Source of the DNA: an uncultured Acidobacteriaceae bacterium
GTDB lineage: Bacteria > Acidobacteriota > Terriglobia > Terriglobales > Acidobacteriaceae
Length of the DNA: 64,000 nucleotides
Direction of reading: 5' to 3'
NCBI GenBank assembly: GCA_963848805.1
Contig: CAWKFD010000030.1
Coordinates: 14,796 to 78,795 of the forward strand
Shown: positions 3,562 through 63,752 of the stretch, one piece after another
Layout: every line of letters starts with the position of its first letter
Numbering within the stretch: position 1 is the stretch's first letter
The notes under the pieces: model-generated
The model's database searches: none
What the model saw: only the letters and a program-made list of their open reading frames with translations
What the model was told of the DNA's origin: nothing
Position numbers and translations under genes: made by a program

Positions 3562-4736
3562 GCCACGTTGCGATTGCGATTCCCGGCGTGGACCGCATTG
3601 GCGGCGCCGAACGGCAGGCGATGCTGCTGGCGAAGGGGCAGCGCGAGCGCGGCTGGCGGGTGAGCGTGGTGGCGCTTTCCGGCTGCGGCGGCGGCGCGGC
3701 AGCCAATGAATTGCGGAGCGCAGGCGTTCAATTCGTCAGCCTGGAAATGCGCAAGGGCCTTTGGGATCCGCGGGGATGGATTCGCTTCAATCGATGGCTT
3801 TGGCGCGAGCGGCCCGACGTGGTGCACGCGCACCTGCCGCACGCCGCGTGGCTGGCACGGTGGTCGCGGCTTGTTGCGCCTGACGCGGTGGTTGTGGACA
3901 CACTGCACAGTTCGCACACCGGAACGATGGGGCGGCGGGCCGGTTATCGCACCAGTAGCTGGCTAGCGGACCACGTAACGGCAGTGAGCCAGGCCACGGC
4001 GGAATCTCATCTTGCCGCAGGGATGGTGAGCGAAAAAAAACTGACCGTGCTCGGGAACGGGATCGAATTGGACGCCTGGCGGCCGGATGTGGCGGCGCGA
4101 ACCGCAGTGCGCCGAGAGCTTCGTCTGGCCGACGAGTTCTTGTGGCTGGCCGCGGGGCGTCTGGATCGGGTGAAGGACTATCCGACACTGCTGAACGCCT
4201 TTGTGAGTGCGCCTGCGACGGCGCGGCTTCTGATTGCGGGCACGGGGCCTCTCGAAGCCGAACTGGTGCAGCTTGCCAAGCGACTCGGCCTGGAGCAGCG
4301 CGTGCATTTTCTCGGCTTCGAGCCGAATGTGCGGCGCTGGATGCAGGCAGCAGATGGATTCGTGCTGTCGTCGCGCTACGAGGGCCTGCCGATGGTGCTG
4401 CTGGAGGCAGGCGCCTGCGGCTTGCCCGCCGTGGCCACCGATGTCGCCGGCACGCGCGAGGTGATTGTGAACGAAAGGACAGGGTGGCTGGCGCGCGCGG
4501 GCGATGCGAACGCGCTGGCGCAAGCCATGGCTAAGCTGATGCACGCGCCAGCCGAGGAACGGCGCGCCATGGGTGAACGCGCGCGCAGGATGGTGCGCGA
4601 GCGCTTCAGCATGGAAACCGTGCTCGACCGGTGGGAGCAGCTTTACGCTGAGTTGCTCGATCGGAAGAGCGCAGGGCGGCGGATGCGCCTAACCGTCCGC
4701 GAGGATTTGAGACGCCAGAGCGCCGCTTCAGCCTGA
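3546..4736 (+). CDS. Glycosyltransferase family 4 (GT-B fold)
   Basis: GGAERQ N-terminal motif, PDVVHAH, GRLDRVKDY, SRYEGLPMVLLEAGACGLPAVATDVAG (E-x7-E motif). Start codon uncertain. Confidence 0.92.
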   Translation: MEAKVSHVAIAIPGVDRIGGAERQAMLLAKGQRERGWRVSVVALSGCGGGAAANELRSAGVQFVSLEMRKGLWDPRGWIRFNRWLWRERPDVVHAHLPHAAWLARWSRLVAPDAVVVDTLHSSHTGTMGRRAGYRTSSWLADHVTAVSQATAESHLAAGMVSEKKLTVLGNGIELDAWRPDVAARTAVRRELRLADEFLWLAAGRLDRVKDYPTLLNAFVSAPATARLLIAGTGPLEAELVQLAKRLGLEQRVHFLGFEPNVRRWMQAADGFVLSSRYEGLPMVLLEAGACGLPAVATDVAGTREVIVNERTGWLARAGDANALAQAMAKLMHAPAEERRAMGERARRMVRERFSMETVLDRWEQLYAELLDRKSAGRRMRLTVREDLRRQSAASA

Positions 4737-52836: not shown

Positions 52837-52913
<77 letters not shown>

Positions 52914-54271: not shown

Positions 54272-56395
<2,124 letters not shown>

Positions 56396-57313: not shown

Positions 57314-57754
57314 ATGGGACGGAGTGTAAACAAGGTCATTCTTTTGGGCCGCGCCGGCAAAGACCCGTCGGTCCACATTCTGCGTACGGGCACGATCGTC
57401 AACCTGTCGCTCGCCACCAGCGAGCGCTACCGGGATATCCACGGTGACTGGCAGGAGCACACCGAGTGGCACAATCTGGTGGGCTTCCAGCGAACGGCCG
57501 AGATCCTGCGCGACTATGTCCGCAAGGGGTCGCGGCTCTATGTCGAGGGCTCGCTGCGGACTCGCTCCTGGGACGACCGGCAAACCGGCCAGCGCCGGTA
57601 TCGCTCCGAGATTGTCGTCAACGAGATCAGCCTCCTGTCTCCTCCTCCCGACGGCGGCACCGATGACGTGGAGCACTACGTCAGCGGGCAGGGCTTTGCG
57701 CAGCCTGAGTTCAATGATGAACCGGAGATCTCGCAGGAAGAAGTGCCGTATTAA
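57314..57754 (+). CDS. ssb: Single-stranded DNA-binding protein
   Basis: SVNKVILLGRAGKDP, LSLATSE, TEWHNLV, KGSRLYVEGSLRTRSW, acidic tail ending EEVPY. Confidence 0.93.
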   Translation: MGRSVNKVILLGRAGKDPSVHILRTGTIVNLSLATSERYRDIHGDWQEHTEWHNLVGFQRTAEILRDYVRKGSRLYVEGSLRTRSWDDRQTGQRRYRSEIVVNEISLLSPPPDGGTDDVEHYVSGQGFAQPEFNDEPEISQEEVPY

Positions 57755-57804
57755 CACAAGCGCAGAATTCGCTTGTATCAAGAGCAACCCATTTTTCGGT
57801 CACC

Positions 57805-58491
57805 TCAGGGAATATTGGAGGCAATGGACGCCAGGCGTCCTTTAATGAGTGGAACCCGCCCGTCGTCGAGGACAAATCCAGGAAGAACGTCAAGAAATCT
57901 GGATTCGGCAAGCAGCATCTTCGCTGCATCCGCAAGATACCGCCGAAGCGGTTGCGGAGACGCGGCGATCTCCTGTAGCAGCGTCTCCCGTCCCTCGATG
58001 ACAGCAACAAAGTCTTCGAGATCGTGGCTAACCTGAAAGTCCATCTTGCCTCGTCCCCGGAATGCTTCCATCTTTGTTCCCAGGAAAAACGGTGCAGTGA
58101 TCACCCGGATCGATTGTCCACTCGGCAGGGTAGCCGTGAACGCATGTTTGAGCGCGGGCTCATACCAGATGTTGGTGAACCCGAGCACCTCTTCGTTGAG
58201 CGCCAGCACATCTAACGTCAAGCCGCTATTGTGCCATCGGCACGTAAGAGGGTTTTCCCCAGAGTCCTCAGTGAAATGGGCCTTGCGAAGACGTTCTGAG
58301 AACGCGATGTAATCGGCATACGTAACAATTTCAGCGATTACATCGACATCGTTTGTTCCTCGAATCGGAGCGGCGGCCTTGTCGGTAATCAACAGCCCGA
58401 GCGTCACTCCTCCGACGAAAACGATTTCATCCAGAAATGGAGCGAGCTTGCGGACTGCATCTTCCAGCAGAGGCAGATTCGGATCAGGCAT
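57805..58491 (-). CDS. AbiEii-like (Pol-beta fold) nucleotidyltransferase, putative toxin
   Basis: VFVGG, TNDVDV (DxD), TLDVL, TKMEAFRGRG, SHDLED; overlaps the upstream wHTH gene by 8 nt. Confidence 0.72.
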   Translation of the reverse strand: MPDPNLPLLEDAVRKLAPFLDEIVFVGGVTLGLLITDKAAAPIRGTNDVDVIAEIVTYADYIAFSERLRKAHFTEDSGENPLTCRWHNSGLTLDVLALNEEVLGFTNIWYEPALKHAFTATLPSGQSIRVITAPFFLGTKMEAFRGRGKMDFQVSHDLEDFVAVIEGRETLLQEIAASPQPLRRYLADAAKMLLAESRFLDVLPGFVLDDGRVPLIKGRLASIASNIP

Positions 58492-58993
58492 TGATTTCCT
58501 TTCCGAGAAGTTCGACCGCAAGGTTTCGTTCCCTCGTTCTTCCGCTGCGAATTGCATCGCAGAGAGCGAGAACACTATGGAATTTTGGATCGAGCAACGC
58601 GGCTTTGGGCGCCCCCTTGTAAAGCGGGGCAAGCGACATTCCTCGAACCTTTCCTTCTGCATACGGCCAAACTGCGGGAGGCTCACCATCCTCCAGTAAG
58701 CGCGATTTGAGCGGTTCCGCCGCGGCGGCCGTGGGAACCCCTCGAACGAGAGGTCCCTTGGCAGGCGGAAAGACGTACTTCAATCCATGCGCTAGAAACT
58801 CCATGAGCGCAGATCGGTTTACCCGTTTCTCTCCACTGGACAGGTAGAGCAAGCCTGAATCCGCACAGCGCTTCAGAGCCTTCGATACCTCGGAAGGAGA
58901 GATGAATAGGCTCTCCGCCAGGTTTTTCGAGGGTACCTGCGGCCCATTCTGGATGGCGAGTTTGAGGAGAAGCGCAACGTCTTGTCCTTGCAT
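58484..58993 (-). CDS. Winged-helix (MarR-like N-terminus) protein, putative AbiEi-like antitoxin
   Basis: QDVALLLKL...LAESLFISPSEVSKALKRC..SGLL; HGLKYVFPP, RGVPTA, VWPY, PLY, LALCDAIRSGRTRE. Confidence 0.72.
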   Translation of the reverse strand: MQGQDVALLLKLAIQNGPQVPSKNLAESLFISPSEVSKALKRCADSGLLYLSSGEKRVNRSALMEFLAHGLKYVFPPAKGPLVRGVPTAAAAEPLKSRLLEDGEPPAVWPYAEGKVRGMSLAPLYKGAPKAALLDPKFHSVLALCDAIRSGRTRERNLAVELLGKEINA

Positions 58994-59010
58994 ATGCCCA
59001 TTGTAACCCC

Positions 59011-59038
59011 ATATTTCCAATTTGGAAATTGGAAATAT
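59011..59038. promoter_or_regulatory. Perfect 12-bp inverted repeat over the promoter of the wHTH-NTase pair
   Basis: ATATTTCCAATT-TGGA-AATTGGAAATAT; on the minus strand it precedes TACAAT, which lies 6 nt from the ATG. Confidence 0.7.
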
Positions 59039-59167
59039 GATCCAAGCGCGGAATATACAGCGAACATCCGCACAAAAATCTATGGCCTGAATCATAGGGA
59101 GCGCCCGCTGGAGCACTCTCAATCACTTTGCCTGAAAACGTAGGCCCCTAGCCAGAGGAGGTGAGGT

Positions 59168-60055
59168 ATGGCCGCAACGAAGTTTACAGAAGCCGAGCGC
59201 GAGAAGCTCTTCGCGCAGCTCGAAGCGCCGTTCGATCCGGCGCTGATCAAGTGGCGCGTGATGCGCACCTTCGACTATGGCCGGAGCGGCGTCATTCTGC
59301 CCTTCGCCGATCCGCGCGCCTACACGGACCGGCTCAACGAACTCTTCACGCCGTCGGGCTGGACGCGCGAGTACACGATCTCGACCGTGCCGTCGCTCTG
59401 CCGCATGGAGCGGGGCAAGGCGATCGTGACCAGCAAGGTGCTGGTGGCGACCGCAGTGACGATCACGCGGCTGGGCAGCCACACCGGCACCGGCGAGGAG
59501 TGGGCCGACCGGGAAAACGCCGTCACGGCGGCGGACGCCCAGGCCTTCAAGCGGGCCTGTAGCTGTTTCGGGCTGGGCCGCTACCTCTACCGTTTCGGAG
59601 AGACCCGAGTGCGGCTGAATTCCCGTGGTGAGCCGATGGCAATCCCCACTCTGCCCGAGTGGGCGCTGCCGCCGGGAATGACCATGGCTCAGGCGAACGG
59701 CCTGGCCGGCGACACGCGCGGACCAGTCGATCAGCGGCTGACGGTGGAGATCGAAGGCTTTCGCGGGACGCTGGGCGAGCCGATCTACGCGGAGATTCTG
59801 CGCCGGGCCGGGCACAGCGCCGACGCGCGGACCATCCCCAACGCGGAGCGGCAGAAGCAGACCATCGAGAAGATGCAGGCTGCAGCGCGCGGTTTCGAGC
59901 GGCTGCGCAACCTGGCCGAGATGGCTGGCGACGCGCAGTTCTTCGCCGTAACGGAGCGCTTCAAAATCGCATCGGTCACCGAACTGCCGAGCCTGGGGGC
60001 GTTGAAGCAACTGGTCGATGAACTCGAATCCATGGCCAATCAGCAGGTCGCCTAG
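59168..60055 (+). CDS. Rad52/Rad22-family single-strand annealing protein
   Basis: LEAPFDP..IKWRV, FADPRAYTDRLNELF, W...Y, AFKRACSCFGLGRYLY. Confidence 0.82.
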   Translation: MAATKFTEAEREKLFAQLEAPFDPALIKWRVMRTFDYGRSGVILPFADPRAYTDRLNELFTPSGWTREYTISTVPSLCRMERGKAIVTSKVLVATAVTITRLGSHTGTGEEWADRENAVTAADAQAFKRACSCFGLGRYLYRFGETRVRLNSRGEPMAIPTLPEWALPPGMTMAQANGLAGDTRGPVDQRLTVEIEGFRGTLGEPIYAEILRRAGHSADARTIPNAERQKQTIEKMQAAARGFERLRNLAEMAGDAQFFAVTERFKIASVTELPSLGALKQLVDELESMANQQVA

Positions 60056-60082: not shown

Positions 60083-60331
60083 ATGGGAGAAATCAGCATT
60101 CTGCGTCCGCGTCGCAGCCTCGTCAGCATTCCGGTTGTCGAAGCCGTCTACTGCGAGAGTTGCGCCACAGTCTCGAACTCAAGCGGTGGATGTTGCGGCG
60201 TGTGCGGCAACATCTCCGTTTGGCCGCTGGCCGAGTTGGTGCCGCAGCCACCGAAGAGCCCGAACCCCGGAGTTGCATCGGCAGGGCGACTGTTTCCAGC
60301 CTGGTGCGACAGATTGGAAAGGGCGGCGTGA
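60083..60331 (+). CDS. Small Cys-rich (zinc-ribbon) protein
   Basis: AVYCESC...CCGVCG; translationally coupled to the next ORF. Confidence 0.6.
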   Translation: MGEISILRPRRSLVSIPVVEAVYCESCATVSNSSGGCCGVCGNISVWPLAELVPQPPKSPNPGVASAGRLFPAWCDRLERAA

Positions 60332-60732
60332 TGGATACAGCAGAAACAACCGCATCCCTACCCAAACCCGCCGTTTTCGCCCACCGGGAAGCTTTGCGGC
60401 TTCCCGCTTCGAAGGTCGTCGAGAAGCTGGTTGAGATCGTCGGGCGGAAACTGACCGCTTATATCGGCGGCGTCAAGGACGCTCGTGCTGTCGATCGCTG
60501 GATCGCCGGCGGCGAGATCTACGGCGATGCTGAGAGCCGGTTGCGGTTCGCCTTTCAGGTGGCGCGCACCTTGAGCGAGCACGATTCGCCCGCCGTCGTG
60601 CAGGCTTGGCTGACGGGCGTGAATCCGGAACTGGGAGACAGAGTGCCGCTGCGCCTGATGCGCGAGAATGAGATTGATGCGGTGGCGCCAGCCATCCTGA
60701 GCGCCGCCAGAGCATACCTCAGCGACAAGTAG
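60331..60732 (+). CDS. Xre/MbcA/ParS-like antitoxin (no RES toxin next to it)
   Basis: LVEIVGRKLTAYIGGV...V.RW..G...RLR.A....L......VVQAWL.G.NP.LGD..PL.L pattern of RES-associated antitoxins. Confidence 0.65.
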   Translation: MDTAETTASLPKPAVFAHREALRLPASKVVEKLVEIVGRKLTAYIGGVKDARAVDRWIAGGEIYGDAESRLRFAFQVARTLSEHDSPAVVQAWLTGVNPELGDRVPLRLMRENEIDAVAPAILSAARAYLSDK

Positions 60733-60761
60733 ACGGGTAATTTTCCTTAAATGATATGGTT

Positions 60762-60810
60762 AATATATTGCCTTTCGTGTCGTATAATGGAGACAAAGAG
60801 GCAACATATT
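60762..60810. promoter_or_regulatory. hipBA promoter: TATAAT flanked by 12-bp inverted repeat arms
   Basis: AATATATTGCCT (60762-73) and AGGCAACATATT (60799-810), one mismatch; TATAAT at 60783-88. Confidence 0.6.
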
Positions 60811-61141
60811 GGCTGTATATCTCAGGACCGTGCAAGAGGTACAGACAGGAATTGCAGGGCGGTTCAAGGCCCGGCGTCTTGCCATGAACCTAACACAGAG
60901 AGAACTGGCGGCGCGCTCGGGCGTGACCTTCAGTTCTCTGAAGCGATTTGAGCGCGAAGGATTGATCGCGCTGGATTCGCTTCTGAATCTGGCCTTGGTG
61001 CTCAATTGCCTTGACGATTTCGACAAGCTGGCCATGGAAAGCCAGCCCATCTCAGTCACCCAATCGCTCGATGCCCTTCTGGCCACGCCGGCGTTGCGGC
61101 GCGGAGCAACGGGCAGAAAAGGACGCAGCCATGGCGTATAA
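60809..61141 (+). CDS. hipB: HipB-like XRE HTH antitoxin
   Basis: KARRLAMNLTQRELAARSGVTFSSLKRFEREG.I.L.SL; overlaps the hipA start. Confidence 0.8.
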   Translation: MAVYLRTVQEVQTGIAGRFKARRLAMNLTQRELAARSGVTFSSLKRFEREGLIALDSLLNLALVLNCLDDFDKLAMESQPISVTQSLDALLATPALRRGATGRKGRSHGV

Positions 61142-62357
61142 GCCGACAGAGTTGCTGACCGTCTATCTTGACGCGCGAAACCAGCGCCGCAAGGTTGGGC
61201 GCCTCGCGTTCAAGGACAGGCAGATCCTTTTCGAGTATGACGCCTCCTTCCTTGCTTCGGGCATCGAGATTTCGCCGATCAAACTTCCTCTCAGGCCCGG
61301 CGTCTCCATTGCCGACACCACGATCTTCGACGGCCTGCATGGCGTATTCAATGACAGTCTGCCGGACGGATGGGGCCGCCTTTTGCTCGACCGCACAGTG
61401 GAAAAACACGGTGTCCATCGTGGCCAACTGAATCCGCTCGACCGGCTGGCCTATGTGGGACGGCACGGCATGGGCGCTCTCAGCTACGAGCCCGAGCTCA
61501 GCCAGCAAACCGCCGACGATGCTCCGCTGGCTCTCGACAAACTTGCTGAGGAATCAGCCGTCGTACTGGCCGGAGAGAACGAAGAGGTCTTCGAAGATTT
61601 GCTGCGGCTCAATGGCTCCTCTTCAGGCGCCCGCCCCAAGATCGTGGCGCAAGTGAGCACGGACAAGAAAAGGATCATTCACGGCCAGCAGGAATTGCAA
61701 CCCGGCTTCGCGCACTGGATGATCAAGTTTCCGTCTTCCCAGGACGCGCGGGATGCGGGAGCTATCGAATACGCCTATAGCCTGATGGCAAAGGATGCGG
61801 GCGTGGAAATGCCTGAGACTCATCTTTTCCGCACGAAAAGGAACAAATACTTCGGCACGAAGCGCTTCGACCGGGACATTGATGCCCACATCCACATGCA
61901 CAGCCTTGGCGGCCTGATCCATGCCGATCATCGCACTCCCAGCCTCGACTACAATATGGTTCTGCGCGTGACCCTGGCGTTGACCAGGAATATCCAGGAT
62001 GCCGAAAAGGCCTATGCTTTGGCCTGCTTCAACGTTCTTGCCCATAACCGCGACGATCACGTGAAGAATTTTTCGTTCCTGTTGAACGCAAGAAACGAAT
62101 GGATTTTTGCGCCAGCCTACGACCTCACCTTTTCCTATGGTCCGGGCGGTGAGCAAAGCATGCTCGTGATGGGAGAGGGACGGAATCCCGGTGCAGCCCA
62201 ACTTCAGGCATTGGGCAAGCAGCATGGGATAAAGAACGCGCAGGAGATTCTGGCAAAAGTTAAAACCGCCGTGGCCAACTGGCGCCGCTATGCTGAACAG
62301 GCTGGCGTATCGCGAAAATCCACCCAAGAGATCGCAGACAAGATCAAGATGCCGTAA
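61131..62357 (+). CDS. hipA: HipA-family Ser/Thr kinase toxin
   Basis: N-terminal couple domain (FNDSLPDGWGR), GSSSGARPK, WMIKFP, EYAYSLMA, KRFDR, NRDDHVKNF, FAPAYDL. Confidence 0.93.
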   Translation: MAYKPTELLTVYLDARNQRRKVGRLAFKDRQILFEYDASFLASGIEISPIKLPLRPGVSIADTTIFDGLHGVFNDSLPDGWGRLLLDRTVEKHGVHRGQLNPLDRLAYVGRHGMGALSYEPELSQQTADDAPLALDKLAEESAVVLAGENEEVFEDLLRLNGSSSGARPKIVAQVSTDKKRIIHGQQELQPGFAHWMIKFPSSQDARDAGAIEYAYSLMAKDAGVEMPETHLFRTKRNKYFGTKRFDRDIDAHIHMHSLGGLIHADHRTPSLDYNMVLRVTLALTRNIQDAEKAYALACFNVLAHNRDDHVKNFSFLLNARNEWIFAPAYDLTFSYGPGGEQSMLVMGEGRNPGAAQLQALGKQHGIKNAQEILAKVKTAVANWRRYAEQAGVSRKSTQEIADKIKMP

Positions 62358-62432
62358 TTGTCTTCATCTTCGAATTCAGGCTGCGACCTAGTCGGGAAAC
62401 CGTTCATCCCGGACACAACGCGGTTCATTCAA

Positions 62433-62600
62433 TCAAGCAGCTTTCGCGGCCGTCTTCTTCGGAACATCTACAGAAATCACCTCTGCTGGCCGGCCAGGCT
62501 TACGCTTGGCGACCACTGCGCCCAATGCGCTCAATAGCGCCTTGGCGTGTTCGAGGCAAGCGATCTCGGCGTCGATTGCGGAAAGAATGTCTTTCACCAT
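62433..62600 (-). CDS. Small basic protein (coiled coil + K/R-rich tail)
   Basis: MVKDILSAIDAEIACLEHAKALL...KRKPGRP...KKTAAKAA; GGAGG-like RBS upstream. Confidence 0.5.
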   Translation of the reverse strand: MVKDILSAIDAEIACLEHAKALLSALGAVVAKRKPGRPAEVISVDVPKKTAAKAA

Positions 62601-62675
62601 GGTGCGCGATGCACCTCCCATCGAGAAATACACGTCCCGATTCAAAACCCAGAGTTCATCGTCCAAGGAGGAACC

Positions 62676-63752
62676 ATGGCGCGCAACGCGGCGCGGTTGA
62701 AGATGGGCTATTACCCGCTTCCTGTAAGCGAGGCCGCGCGGCTTCGCGGATTGCTCAACTTTACCGGCCCGGCGTCGGTCGTCGATCCCTGCGTTGGGCA
62801 AGGAACGGCGCTCGAAATCATCACGCAGGGCGCGGAGGTACGCCGTTACGGCGTCGAACTTGATGCCGAGCGGGCGCTGATTGCTCAAGCAAAGAGCATC
62901 GAGATCATCCAAGGCAACGCCTTCGATGCCGTCGCCAAACCGGAGTCCTTTTCGCTGCTCTATCTGAATCCGCCCTACGACTCCGAGATCGGCCAGGTAG
63001 CGAACAATCGCATGGAGCGGTTGTTTCTCGATCAGACCTATCACTGGCTCGCGATGGACGGCGTGCTGGCGATGGTGATTCCCTTCGAGCGGTTGATGGA
63101 CTGCGCAGGCCTGCTGAGTTCCCACTTCGCACAACTCAATGTCTTCCGTATGACCGACGAGGAATCCGTGCGCTTCCGGCAGATCGCCGTACTCGGCGTG
63201 CGCTCGAACGTGCGCGGAGCAGCGGTCGATGCGAACAAGCGTCTGTTGCAGCGCATCAGCCTCTACGGCAGCTTTCTGGAGTTGCCGGAACTCGCGCCCG
63301 ATGCCTGCGAGCCATATCGTGTGCCACGCACAAGCGAAACGGCTCTCAGCTACCGTGGTCTCCCCTACGACCTGCTCGAAGACCTGTTGCCGCACTCCGG
63401 CGCCTGGAAGCAGGTCATGCCGTTTCTCGCTCCGCACGAAGACGTGGCTACCGGGCGGCCGATCACCCCTCTGCATGGAGGCCATGTCGGGCTGCTCTGC
63501 ACCGCGGGCCTATTGAATGGTGTCTTCGGCCAGGGTGACGACCGGCACATTGCACGCTGGCGATCGGTCAAGCACGTCACCACCTTTGTCGAGCACGACG
63601 AGGAAAACGAGATTGTCCATCACCGTGAGCGATGGGCCAACGAATTGCGGCTGGTCTACGCCGATGGGAGGACGCTGAAGCTGACTGAAACGCCGATCCG
63701 GCAGGAGGAAGATGCCGATGCAGAATGCGCACCTGCGGCTCGGGCTGCTTGA
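62676..63752 (+). CDS. DUF6094-type SAM-dependent (amino-DNA) methyltransferase
   Basis: MGYYP, VVDPCVGQG (motif I), YGVELD, LYLNPPYD (motif IV), PITPLHGGH. Confidence 0.8.
   Translation: MARNAARLKMGYYPLPVSEAARLRGLLNFTGPASVVDPCVGQGTALEIITQGAEVRRYGVELDAERALIAQAKSIEIIQGNAFDAVAKPESFSLLYLNPPYDSEIGQVANNRMERLFLDQTYHWLAMDGVLAMVIPFERLMDCAGLLSSHFAQLNVFRMTDEESVRFRQIAVLGVRSNVRGAAVDANKRLLQRISLYGSFLELPELAPDACEPYRVPRTSETALSYRGLPYDLLEDLLPHSGAWKQVMPFLAPHEDVATGRPITPLHGGHVGLLCTAGLLNGVFGQGDDRHIARWRSVKHVTTFVEHDEENEIVHHRERWANELRLVYADGRTLKLTETPIRQEEDADAECAPAARAA

Follow-up and report, generated by a model that had tools for sequence, protein, structure and literature searches.

What is the function of two small overlapping genes that lie in reverse orientation between the genes for a single-stranded DNA-binding protein (ssb) and a Rad52-like annealase in an integrative element, and that are preceded by a perfect palindrome across their own promoter? 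The question is raised by a stretch of 64,000 nucleotides from an uncultured Acidobacteriaceae bacterium (contig CAWKFD010000030.1; the whole stretch analysed is called the window below), in which the upstream gene of the pair (A) encodes a winged helix-turn-helix (wHTH) protein and the downstream gene (B) a putative nucleotidyltransferase. Sequence comparison, structural models and analogy to known systems together suggest that A and B probably constitute a bicistronic, self-repressed toxin-antitoxin (TA) module that resembles MenAT and AbiE (type VII-style) and that carries a new class of antitoxin. The toxin superfamily is known already, and the pair is listed as a candidate in PADLOC. Three things appear to be new, as judged from the sequences: the class of the antitoxin, a conserved architecture of leaderless start and operator, with its readable helix-operator code, and the setting in a hotspot of Acidobacteriota.

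The arrangement of the locus is as given in a preliminary description, which reported two overlapping genes in reverse orientation between ssb and the Rad52-like gene and noted that they are more AT-rich than their neighbours; the coordinates, the overlap and the PF00436 and PF04098 flanks all agree (Table 1). The 3' end of A and the 5' start of B share 8 nt (ATGCCTGA). The cargo segment holding the pair has a GC content of 54.0%, as against 61–65% in the flanking backbone and 61.3% in the whole window, and a GC content at third codon positions of 57–58%, as against 73–86% in the genes for the archaeo-eukaryotic primase (AEP), ssb and rad52. The segment is compositionally foreign. A longer open reading frame (ORF) of 212 amino acids for A, with a TTG start at 59122, was considered and rejected; most homologues are called at 169 amino acids, the wHTH begins at residue 3, and the extension covers the non-coding palindrome and promoter.

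The case for a toxin begins with protein B. A phmmer search of B against PDB sequences gave no match, and the only match in direct Pfam and NCBIfam scans, to oligopeptidase A (0.002), was judged spurious. The family as a whole is more telling: PF08843 AbiEii is matched by 33 of 54 diverse B homologues (E ≤ 0.1, best 1.6e-8), and a B family profile run against PDB sequences finds Pb27 (9e-6) and MenT1 (6.8e-5), both of which are DUF1814 proteins. In a Foldseek search of the PDB with the AlphaFold (AF2) model of B (predicted local distance difference test score, pLDDT, 96.8) the best match is again MenT1 (8AN5/8AN4; E 9e-6 to 3e-5; template modelling (TM) scores 0.52/0.63 for the best), followed in order by Pb27, JHP933, ANT(2'')-Ia and MenT3/TglT. 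Because the TM scores of these fold matches are just 0.45–0.63, B is to be seen as a divergent member of the superfamily. Its catalytic motif set is complete, with GG, [ST]-x-D-x-D, a third Asp, a Lys and a C-terminal D-x-x-D. Across the 54 sequences (to 34% identity) G27, T46, D48, D50, D94, W109, K140, D157 and D160 are invariant, and the near-invariant residues include G28, R44, C84, R85, R147 and E159; the motifs that had been picked out by eye (GG...DxD, K...R and HDxxD, the last in the form SHDLED) are all there, with little or no variation across the family. Both the catalytic set and the modelled fold match those of DUF1814 nucleotidyltransferase toxins, and B is predicted to be a divergent Pol-beta-fold nucleotidyltransferase of the DUF1814 (AbiEii/MenT) superfamily. 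A HEPN-MNT (HepT/MntA) reading was also tried and was rejected, as there is no HEPN domain and the nucleotidyltransferase is not of MNT type: neither A nor B matches HEPN or NTP_transf_2, and PF01909 is matched by one of the 54 B homologues, at 0.04. Neither protein has a match in PHROGs.

A feature of particular interest for regulation is T46. In the profile alignment the stretch R44-x-T46-x-D48-x-D50 of B is placed on R-F-T-R-D-V-D of MenT1, which contains T39, D41 and D43 by the published numbering, so that T46 is aligned with T39. This threonine in MenT1, S78 in MenT3 and T65 in AbiEii are the sites of antitoxin-induced auto-phosphorylation (PMC10435456; PMC11375011; bioRxiv 10.64898/2026.01.19.700257). 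The toxicity of MenT1 needs D41, K137 and D152, and T39 is dispensable for it (PMC10435456); in MenT1 and MenT3 alike the phosphoacceptor Thr/Ser is regulatory and unneeded for toxicity (PMC10435456; PMC11375011). Because the equivalent residues of MenT1 and MenT3 can be lost without loss of toxicity, the strict conservation of T46 points to regulation, and we infer by analogy that regulation is the best explanation of its invariance.

Protein A is the unusual half of the pair. It is made up of a wHTH (residues 1–58) with sub-threshold similarity to MarR_2 and HTH_24, a linker helix (60–74) and a conserved alpha/beta C-terminal domain (75–169), all modelled at a pLDDT of 95. The C-terminal 95 residues, a three-stranded sheet with three helices in the model, are conserved more strongly than the rest of the protein: 16 of the 18 invariant residues of A lie in the C-terminal part, which carries the motifs EFLxHGxKYxFP, RGxPT, PVWP, GxVRG, PLYK and DAxRxGRxRER. 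When 37 A homologues were compared with Pfam nothing beyond the wHTH, and no AbiEi family, was found; the A profile retrieved wHTH proteins only from the PDB sequences, and comparison with viral folds (BFVD) likewise gave wHTH matches only. A Foldseek search of the PDB with the model returned wHTH regulators only (best E 0.028), and the best 50 did not include AbiEi (6Y8Q); no MenA1 chain of 8AN5 was among the fold matches. Since neither Pfam nor the PDB contains a relative of the C-terminal domain, A is taken to be neither an AbiEi nor a MenA protein, and the early impression that its C-terminus does not read like canonical AbiEi is borne out by the 37 homologues and by the fold search. From its sequence A is predicted to be a dimer-type wHTH protein, and its gene is preceded by a palindrome that overlaps its own promoter.

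This palindrome had been described as a perfect 12-bp inverted repeat covering the promoter. The repeat is real but longer than that, as the arms are of 14 nt and the 12-nt arms (59011–59038) are an inner subset of them. It is composed of the heptad half-sites ATTTCCA, ATTTCCA and inverted TGGAAAT. A palindrome is found just 5' of A in nearly every related locus, with its centre at a median of 26.5 nt ahead of the start codon and with a sequence that differs between loci. Perfect arms of at least 8 nt occur in 54% of the related loci, as against 0.8% of 1,506 control windows of 60 nt taken from related loci, in which the maximum was 9 nt. Furthermore, the half-sites vary between clades in step with the recognition helix of A: SEVSK goes with TTTCCAA or TTTCGAA, SEVHA with ATTCGCG, SEVYA with TATTCAA, SQ[VL]H with TTCTAGA or TTCCAGA, and SQVFR with TTCCATA. 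Such co-variation is the pattern expected for a repressor with its own operator; because the clades share descent it is not an independent statistical test. Two further observations concern the same region. In one related locus (L010) the operator region upstream of position 182 has been enlarged to four or five tandem TTCGAAT heptads, which suggests that operators of this family enlarge via heptad duplication. On its plus strand the palindrome of the window also contains a sequence that resembles a promoter (TTTCCA-16-TATGAT, 59014–59041) and is directed at rad52, and because the reverse-oriented insert separates rad52 from ssb, the cargo may give rad52 an outward promoter controlled by A.

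The promoter is equally distinctive. As had been pointed out, the -10 hexamer TACAAT ends 6 nt from the ATG of A (58993), and there is no Shine-Dalgarno sequence at A. This spacing leaves no room for a ribosome-binding site, and the A-B mRNA is therefore probably leaderless, as far as can be read from the sequence. The same layout recurs in relatives: a TANNNT hexamer ending 4–10 nt before the A start (mode 6 nt) was found in 51 of 78 loci, compared with 3.4% of random positions, and a sequence resembling a Shine-Dalgarno sequence precedes A in only four of the 78. From the position of the hexamer and the rarity of ribosome-binding sites, the leaderless A-B transcript appears to be a trait of the family.

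In a PADLOC scan A and B each match one entry only, PDC-M21A (7.1e-47; A residues 23–167 on model positions 56–202 of 205) and PDC-M21B (1.1e-56; B residues 19–225 on positions 23–230 of 234), with the genes adjacent, and no AbiE model in PADLOC is matched by either protein. Entries of the PDC-x type are unpublished candidate systems (PMC11811056), and a literature search found no description of PDC-M21 or of this type of wHTH and DUF1814 pair. The earlier suggestion of a possibly uncharacterised subfamily holds in so far as the family is uncharacterised, but it is already listed. Relatives of B make up 4,170 clusters at 50% identity (E < 1e-3). Within the phylum B was found in 14 of 301 genomes, always in single copy, and in none of 14 control genomes; it is absent from the three other listed genomes of the same genus. 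The loci compared number 80 and were drawn, among others, from genomes of Acidobacteriota, Gamma- and Deltaproteobacteria; in 78 of them B has an A homologue directly upstream. The two exceptions are a locus cut at the B start and a Terriglobales locus (L021) in which B is interrupted by about 2.9 kb. In the latter, A is intact (426–932) and only B residues 65–228 are found at 4001–4483, about 2.9 kb downstream; the B gene appears to have been split by an insertion, a possible case of natural inactivation. The overlap between A and B is usually 8 or 20 nt, and the two proteins diverge together, with A/B identities from 96/93% to 41/47%. The ssb/rad52 backbone is missing from 78 of the 80 loci; L002 alone shares it, and L023 has a distant AEP match only. 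Because a single locus shares the element backbone, the A-B module seems to travel on its own, and the comparison indicates that it moves horizontally.

The following course of events would fit a TA module of this kind. A would bind the palindrome and repress the leaderless A-B transcript, and through its conserved C-terminal domain it would also neutralise B. The likeliest route would be that A binds B and drives auto-phosphorylation of the active-site T46, on the model of MenA1 acting on T39 of MenT1, MenA3 on S78 of MenT3 and AbiEi on T65 of AbiEii. AbiE, MenAT1 and MenAT3 are described as type VII systems, in which the antitoxin induces auto-phosphorylation of the toxin (PMC11375011; bioRxiv 10.64898/2026.01.19.700257). 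Phage infection, a shut-off of transcription or loss of the element could each remove or displace A, and B, once free, may add nucleotides to the 3'-CCA ends of tRNA, by which aminoacylation and translation would be blocked. The outcome could be abortive infection, post-segregational stabilisation of the element, or both. Of the proposal in the preliminary description, an AbiE-like type IV TA system, the combination of a predicted DNA-binding wHTH protein with a nucleotidyltransferase of the AbiEii/MenT superfamily, carried as cargo, is retained; the term type IV is outdated (such systems are now counted as type VII), and the closest fold is that of MenT1, not AbiEii.

There are several points that weigh against a TA module. 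First, protein B alone has no Pfam match at E ≤ 1. Second, not every member of its superfamily is a toxin, as ANT(2'')-Ia, an aminoglycoside nucleotidyltransferase, and Pb27, a fungal protein, belong to it as well. Third, no similarity of A to AbiEi, MenA1 or MenA3 was detected, and because of this the mechanism of neutralisation is extrapolated from the toxin side only. Fourth, PDC-M21 is a catalogued but unpublished PADLOC candidate. Finally, AbiE of Streptococcus agalactiae gave no protection against 32 coliphages (bioRxiv 10.64898/2026.01.19.700257), so that even a true relative may not show a defence phenotype. It is nonetheless tempting to speculate, as a possibility more than as an expectation, that the C-terminal domain of A is a structurally unprecedented antitoxin domain that binds to a toxin of MenT type and sets off auto-phosphorylation at T46. 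PDC-M21 would then be a third independently evolved route of type VII neutralisation for DUF1814 toxins, after MenA1 and AbiEi/MenA3, with the antitoxin fused to the repressor of a leaderless operon and the whole carried as swappable defence cargo in an acidobacterial hotspot.

The element that carries the pair bears on its role. It begins at a tRNA-Asn gene (Table 1) and encodes a tyrosine integrase, an excisionase-like protein of HTH_17 type, the AEP primase, two unknowns, SSB, the A-B pair on the opposite strand, the Rad52/22 annealase, a protein with an Xre/MbcA/ParS-type C-terminus, HipB, HipA and the product of a backbone gene at 62547–63752. A sister element on another contig of the same genome (L102; G000:C33:10000–24000) has 85–87% nucleotide identity with it. 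The homology ends at 57750, the end of ssb, and restarts at 59150, 18 nt before rad52; at this site L102 has 3.9 kb of unrelated genes (7208–11086 of L102). In five more distant elements (L103, L104, L090, L098 and L099) ssb abuts rad52 directly. The breakpoints in L102 and the empty junctions in the five elements together mark the A-B pair as hotspot cargo, in line with the original view that the pair had been inserted into the backbone, and the ssb-rad52 junction is a cargo hotspot as read from this comparison of a handful of elements. As to what else is found there, the cargo of L102 includes a radical-SAM protein of 372 amino acids with a weak match to prokaryotic viperin (pVip; 9e-7) and two proteins of 356 and 134 amino acids without family matches. 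A second hotspot contains HipB/HipA in the window, and at its counterpart in L102 (4372–5587) lies a FRG and SET-domain protein matching the PADLOC candidate PDC-S15 (4e-44); in a third hotspot with cargo (L093) no family was matched.

It is conceivable that the pair works as a TA module for addiction only, i.e., that it stabilises the tRNA-Asn element and gives no protection against phages. This would be a sub-case of the TA module proposed here, with the same mechanism and another role. The pair is indeed carried by an integrative element with int and xis beside tRNA-Asn, a second TA pair (HipBA) is found on the same element, and the S. agalactiae AbiE that failed to protect against coliphages is likewise borne on an integrative and conjugative element (bioRxiv 10.64898/2026.01.19.700257). 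On the other side, 78 of the 80 related loci are without the ssb/rad52 backbone of this element, defence-like cargo occupies the same hotspots in L102, and the pair is a candidate for phage defence in PADLOC. A role in addiction alone is considered unlikely.

If there is no protein antitoxin at all, A could be purely a sensor and repressor that controls a single-gene effector, comparable to CapH, BrxR or the WYL-type regulators found ahead of defence operons. Its C-terminal domain would sense a signal, for instance damaged DNA, a product of a phage or a small molecule, and B would be harmless through low expression. The wHTH of A, the conserved palindrome over its own promoter and a C-terminal domain resembling no known antitoxin would all fit, and repressors are common ahead of immune operons (PMC9122601; PMC13373217). 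A pure repressor is nevertheless quite improbable, for four reasons: the overlap and translational coupling of A and B in most loci fit partners made in stoichiometric amounts; A and B diverge in step over the whole range of identities; T46 is invariant and non-catalytic, which suggests that control is exerted on the protein; and a protein antitoxin is required by all known DUF1814 toxins. It is very improbable that B is a non-toxin nucleotidyltransferase for small molecules or antibiotics like ANT(2'')-Ia, with A as a ligand-responsive MarR-like repressor of a resistance or detoxification cassette, since the presence of ANT(2'')-Ia and Pb27 among the fold and sequence matches of B, the frequent control of resistance genes by MarR-type repressors and the sub-threshold MarR_2 similarity of A are set against a better fold match to MenT1 than to ANT(2'')-Ia (E 9e-6 vs 3e-3), an invariant phosphoacceptor threonine, the TA architecture of gene order, overlap and palindrome, a hotspot near HipBA with defence-like cargo at the corresponding place in L102, and the PADLOC listing as a phage-defence candidate.

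Table 1. Positions in the window of the A-B operon, its control region and the neighbouring features of the element.
Feature	Position	Strand	Description
Gene A (PDC-M21A)	58484..58993	-	169 aa; winged HTH; putative autorepressor and antitoxin
Gene B (PDC-M21B)	57805..58491	-	228 aa; DUF1814-superfamily (MenT/AbiEii-like) nucleotidyltransferase; putative toxin
Operator palindrome	59010..59039	.	14+14 bp perfect arms, 2-nt centre; putative operator
Sigma-70-like promoter	59000..59028	-	TTTCCA-17-TACAAT; -35 and spacer within the palindrome
Cargo segment	57751..59149	.	1,399 bp; A-B operon and control region only
10-bp hairpin	57753..57779	-	directly past the B stop, between convergent B and ssb
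SSB gene	57332-57754	+ (opposite to A-B)	PF00436, 1e-29
Rad52/22-family annealase gene	59168-60055	+ (opposite to A-B)	PF04098, 4e-9
tRNA-Asn	52838-52912		the integrative element runs onward from here through the window
Second cargo hotspot	60709-62575		HipB/HipA; between the Xre/MbcA/ParS-like gene and the backbone gene 62547-63752

Some further features of the element were seen. The 61-nt stretch that holds the hairpin 3' of B has a folding energy of -21.5 kcal/mol (z = -4.1); the hairpin is a possible terminator, with a clear U-tract absent. The protein of 190 amino acids encoded at 60160–60732 (+) has a weak match to the Xre/MbcA/ParS C-terminal toxin-binding domain (9e-4), with no Res/MbcT-type toxin adjacent, and the sister elements L102 and L104 have kept its gene as part of their backbone. 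Because it is conserved in the backbone without such a toxin beside it, it is regarded as an orphan antitoxin-like gene. Between the excisionase-like gene and the primase gene, an ORF at 54505–55479 (+) starts with a Walker A motif of AAA type and continues in low-complexity sequence, and may be a frameshifted or overlapping ATPase gene.

DUF1814 nucleotidyltransferase toxins (AbiEii and MenT1-4) are among the most abundant effectors of phage defence and TA systems. It has recently been proposed that their unrelated antitoxins all induce auto-phosphorylation of the toxin, and the PDC-M21 family would be a natural test of this proposal, because it is large (more than 4,000 clusters at 50% identity) and compact and has kept the phosphoacceptor while its partner domain is different and highly conserved. 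The co-variation between recognition helix and operator may serve as a ready-made specificity code for a wHTH family, and the consistent leaderless layout is unusual among TA operons. The ssb-rad52 junction and the second hotspot, on the Xre side, offer a handle for finding more cargo in Acidobacteriota, whose defence biology has hardly been studied by experiment.

Among the systems with which the pair can be compared, PDC-M21 of the PADLOC database is the same family, as both A and B match it over nearly their full length; the difference is that the candidate is known as a database name only. The best fold and profile relative of B is MenT1 of the MenAT1 system (MenA1-MenT1, Rv0078B-Rv0078A) of Mycobacterium tuberculosis. 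T46, D48, D50, K140 and D157/D160 of B correspond to T39, D41, D43, K137 and D152 of MenT1, and both are small single-domain proteins, a putative toxin in the case of B, encoded after the antitoxin gene. The identity between them is however only 15–18%, and B is about 35 residues longer. On the antitoxin side the difference is greater, as MenA1 is short and helical and has no DNA-binding domain, whereas A combines, within 169 residues, a wHTH with a new C-terminal domain. AbiE of S. agalactiae and Lactococcus lactis (MenAT3 and RlegTA are of the same COG5340/COG2253 type) is, like A-B, a bicistron with the antitoxin gene first. It shares with A-B an N-terminal wHTH in the antitoxin, inverted repeats in the promoter for repression of the operon (predicted from the sequence for A), a DUF1814-superfamily nucleotidyltransferase with an active-site Thr/Ser phosphoacceptor (predicted for B) and carriage on mobile elements. 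In contrast to AbiEi, A has no COG5340 character, with Pfam, the 6Y8Q fold and the AbiE models of PADLOC all unmatched, and B is about 60 residues shorter than AbiEii and MenT3 and is itself below detection by PF08843. The setting, finally, recalls P2- and P4-like phages and satellites, in which fixed intergenic positions of the backbone swap unrelated TA and defence cargo between similar elements; here the backbone is instead that of an acidobacterial tRNA-Asn element with an AEP primase, SSB and a Rad52-like annealase.

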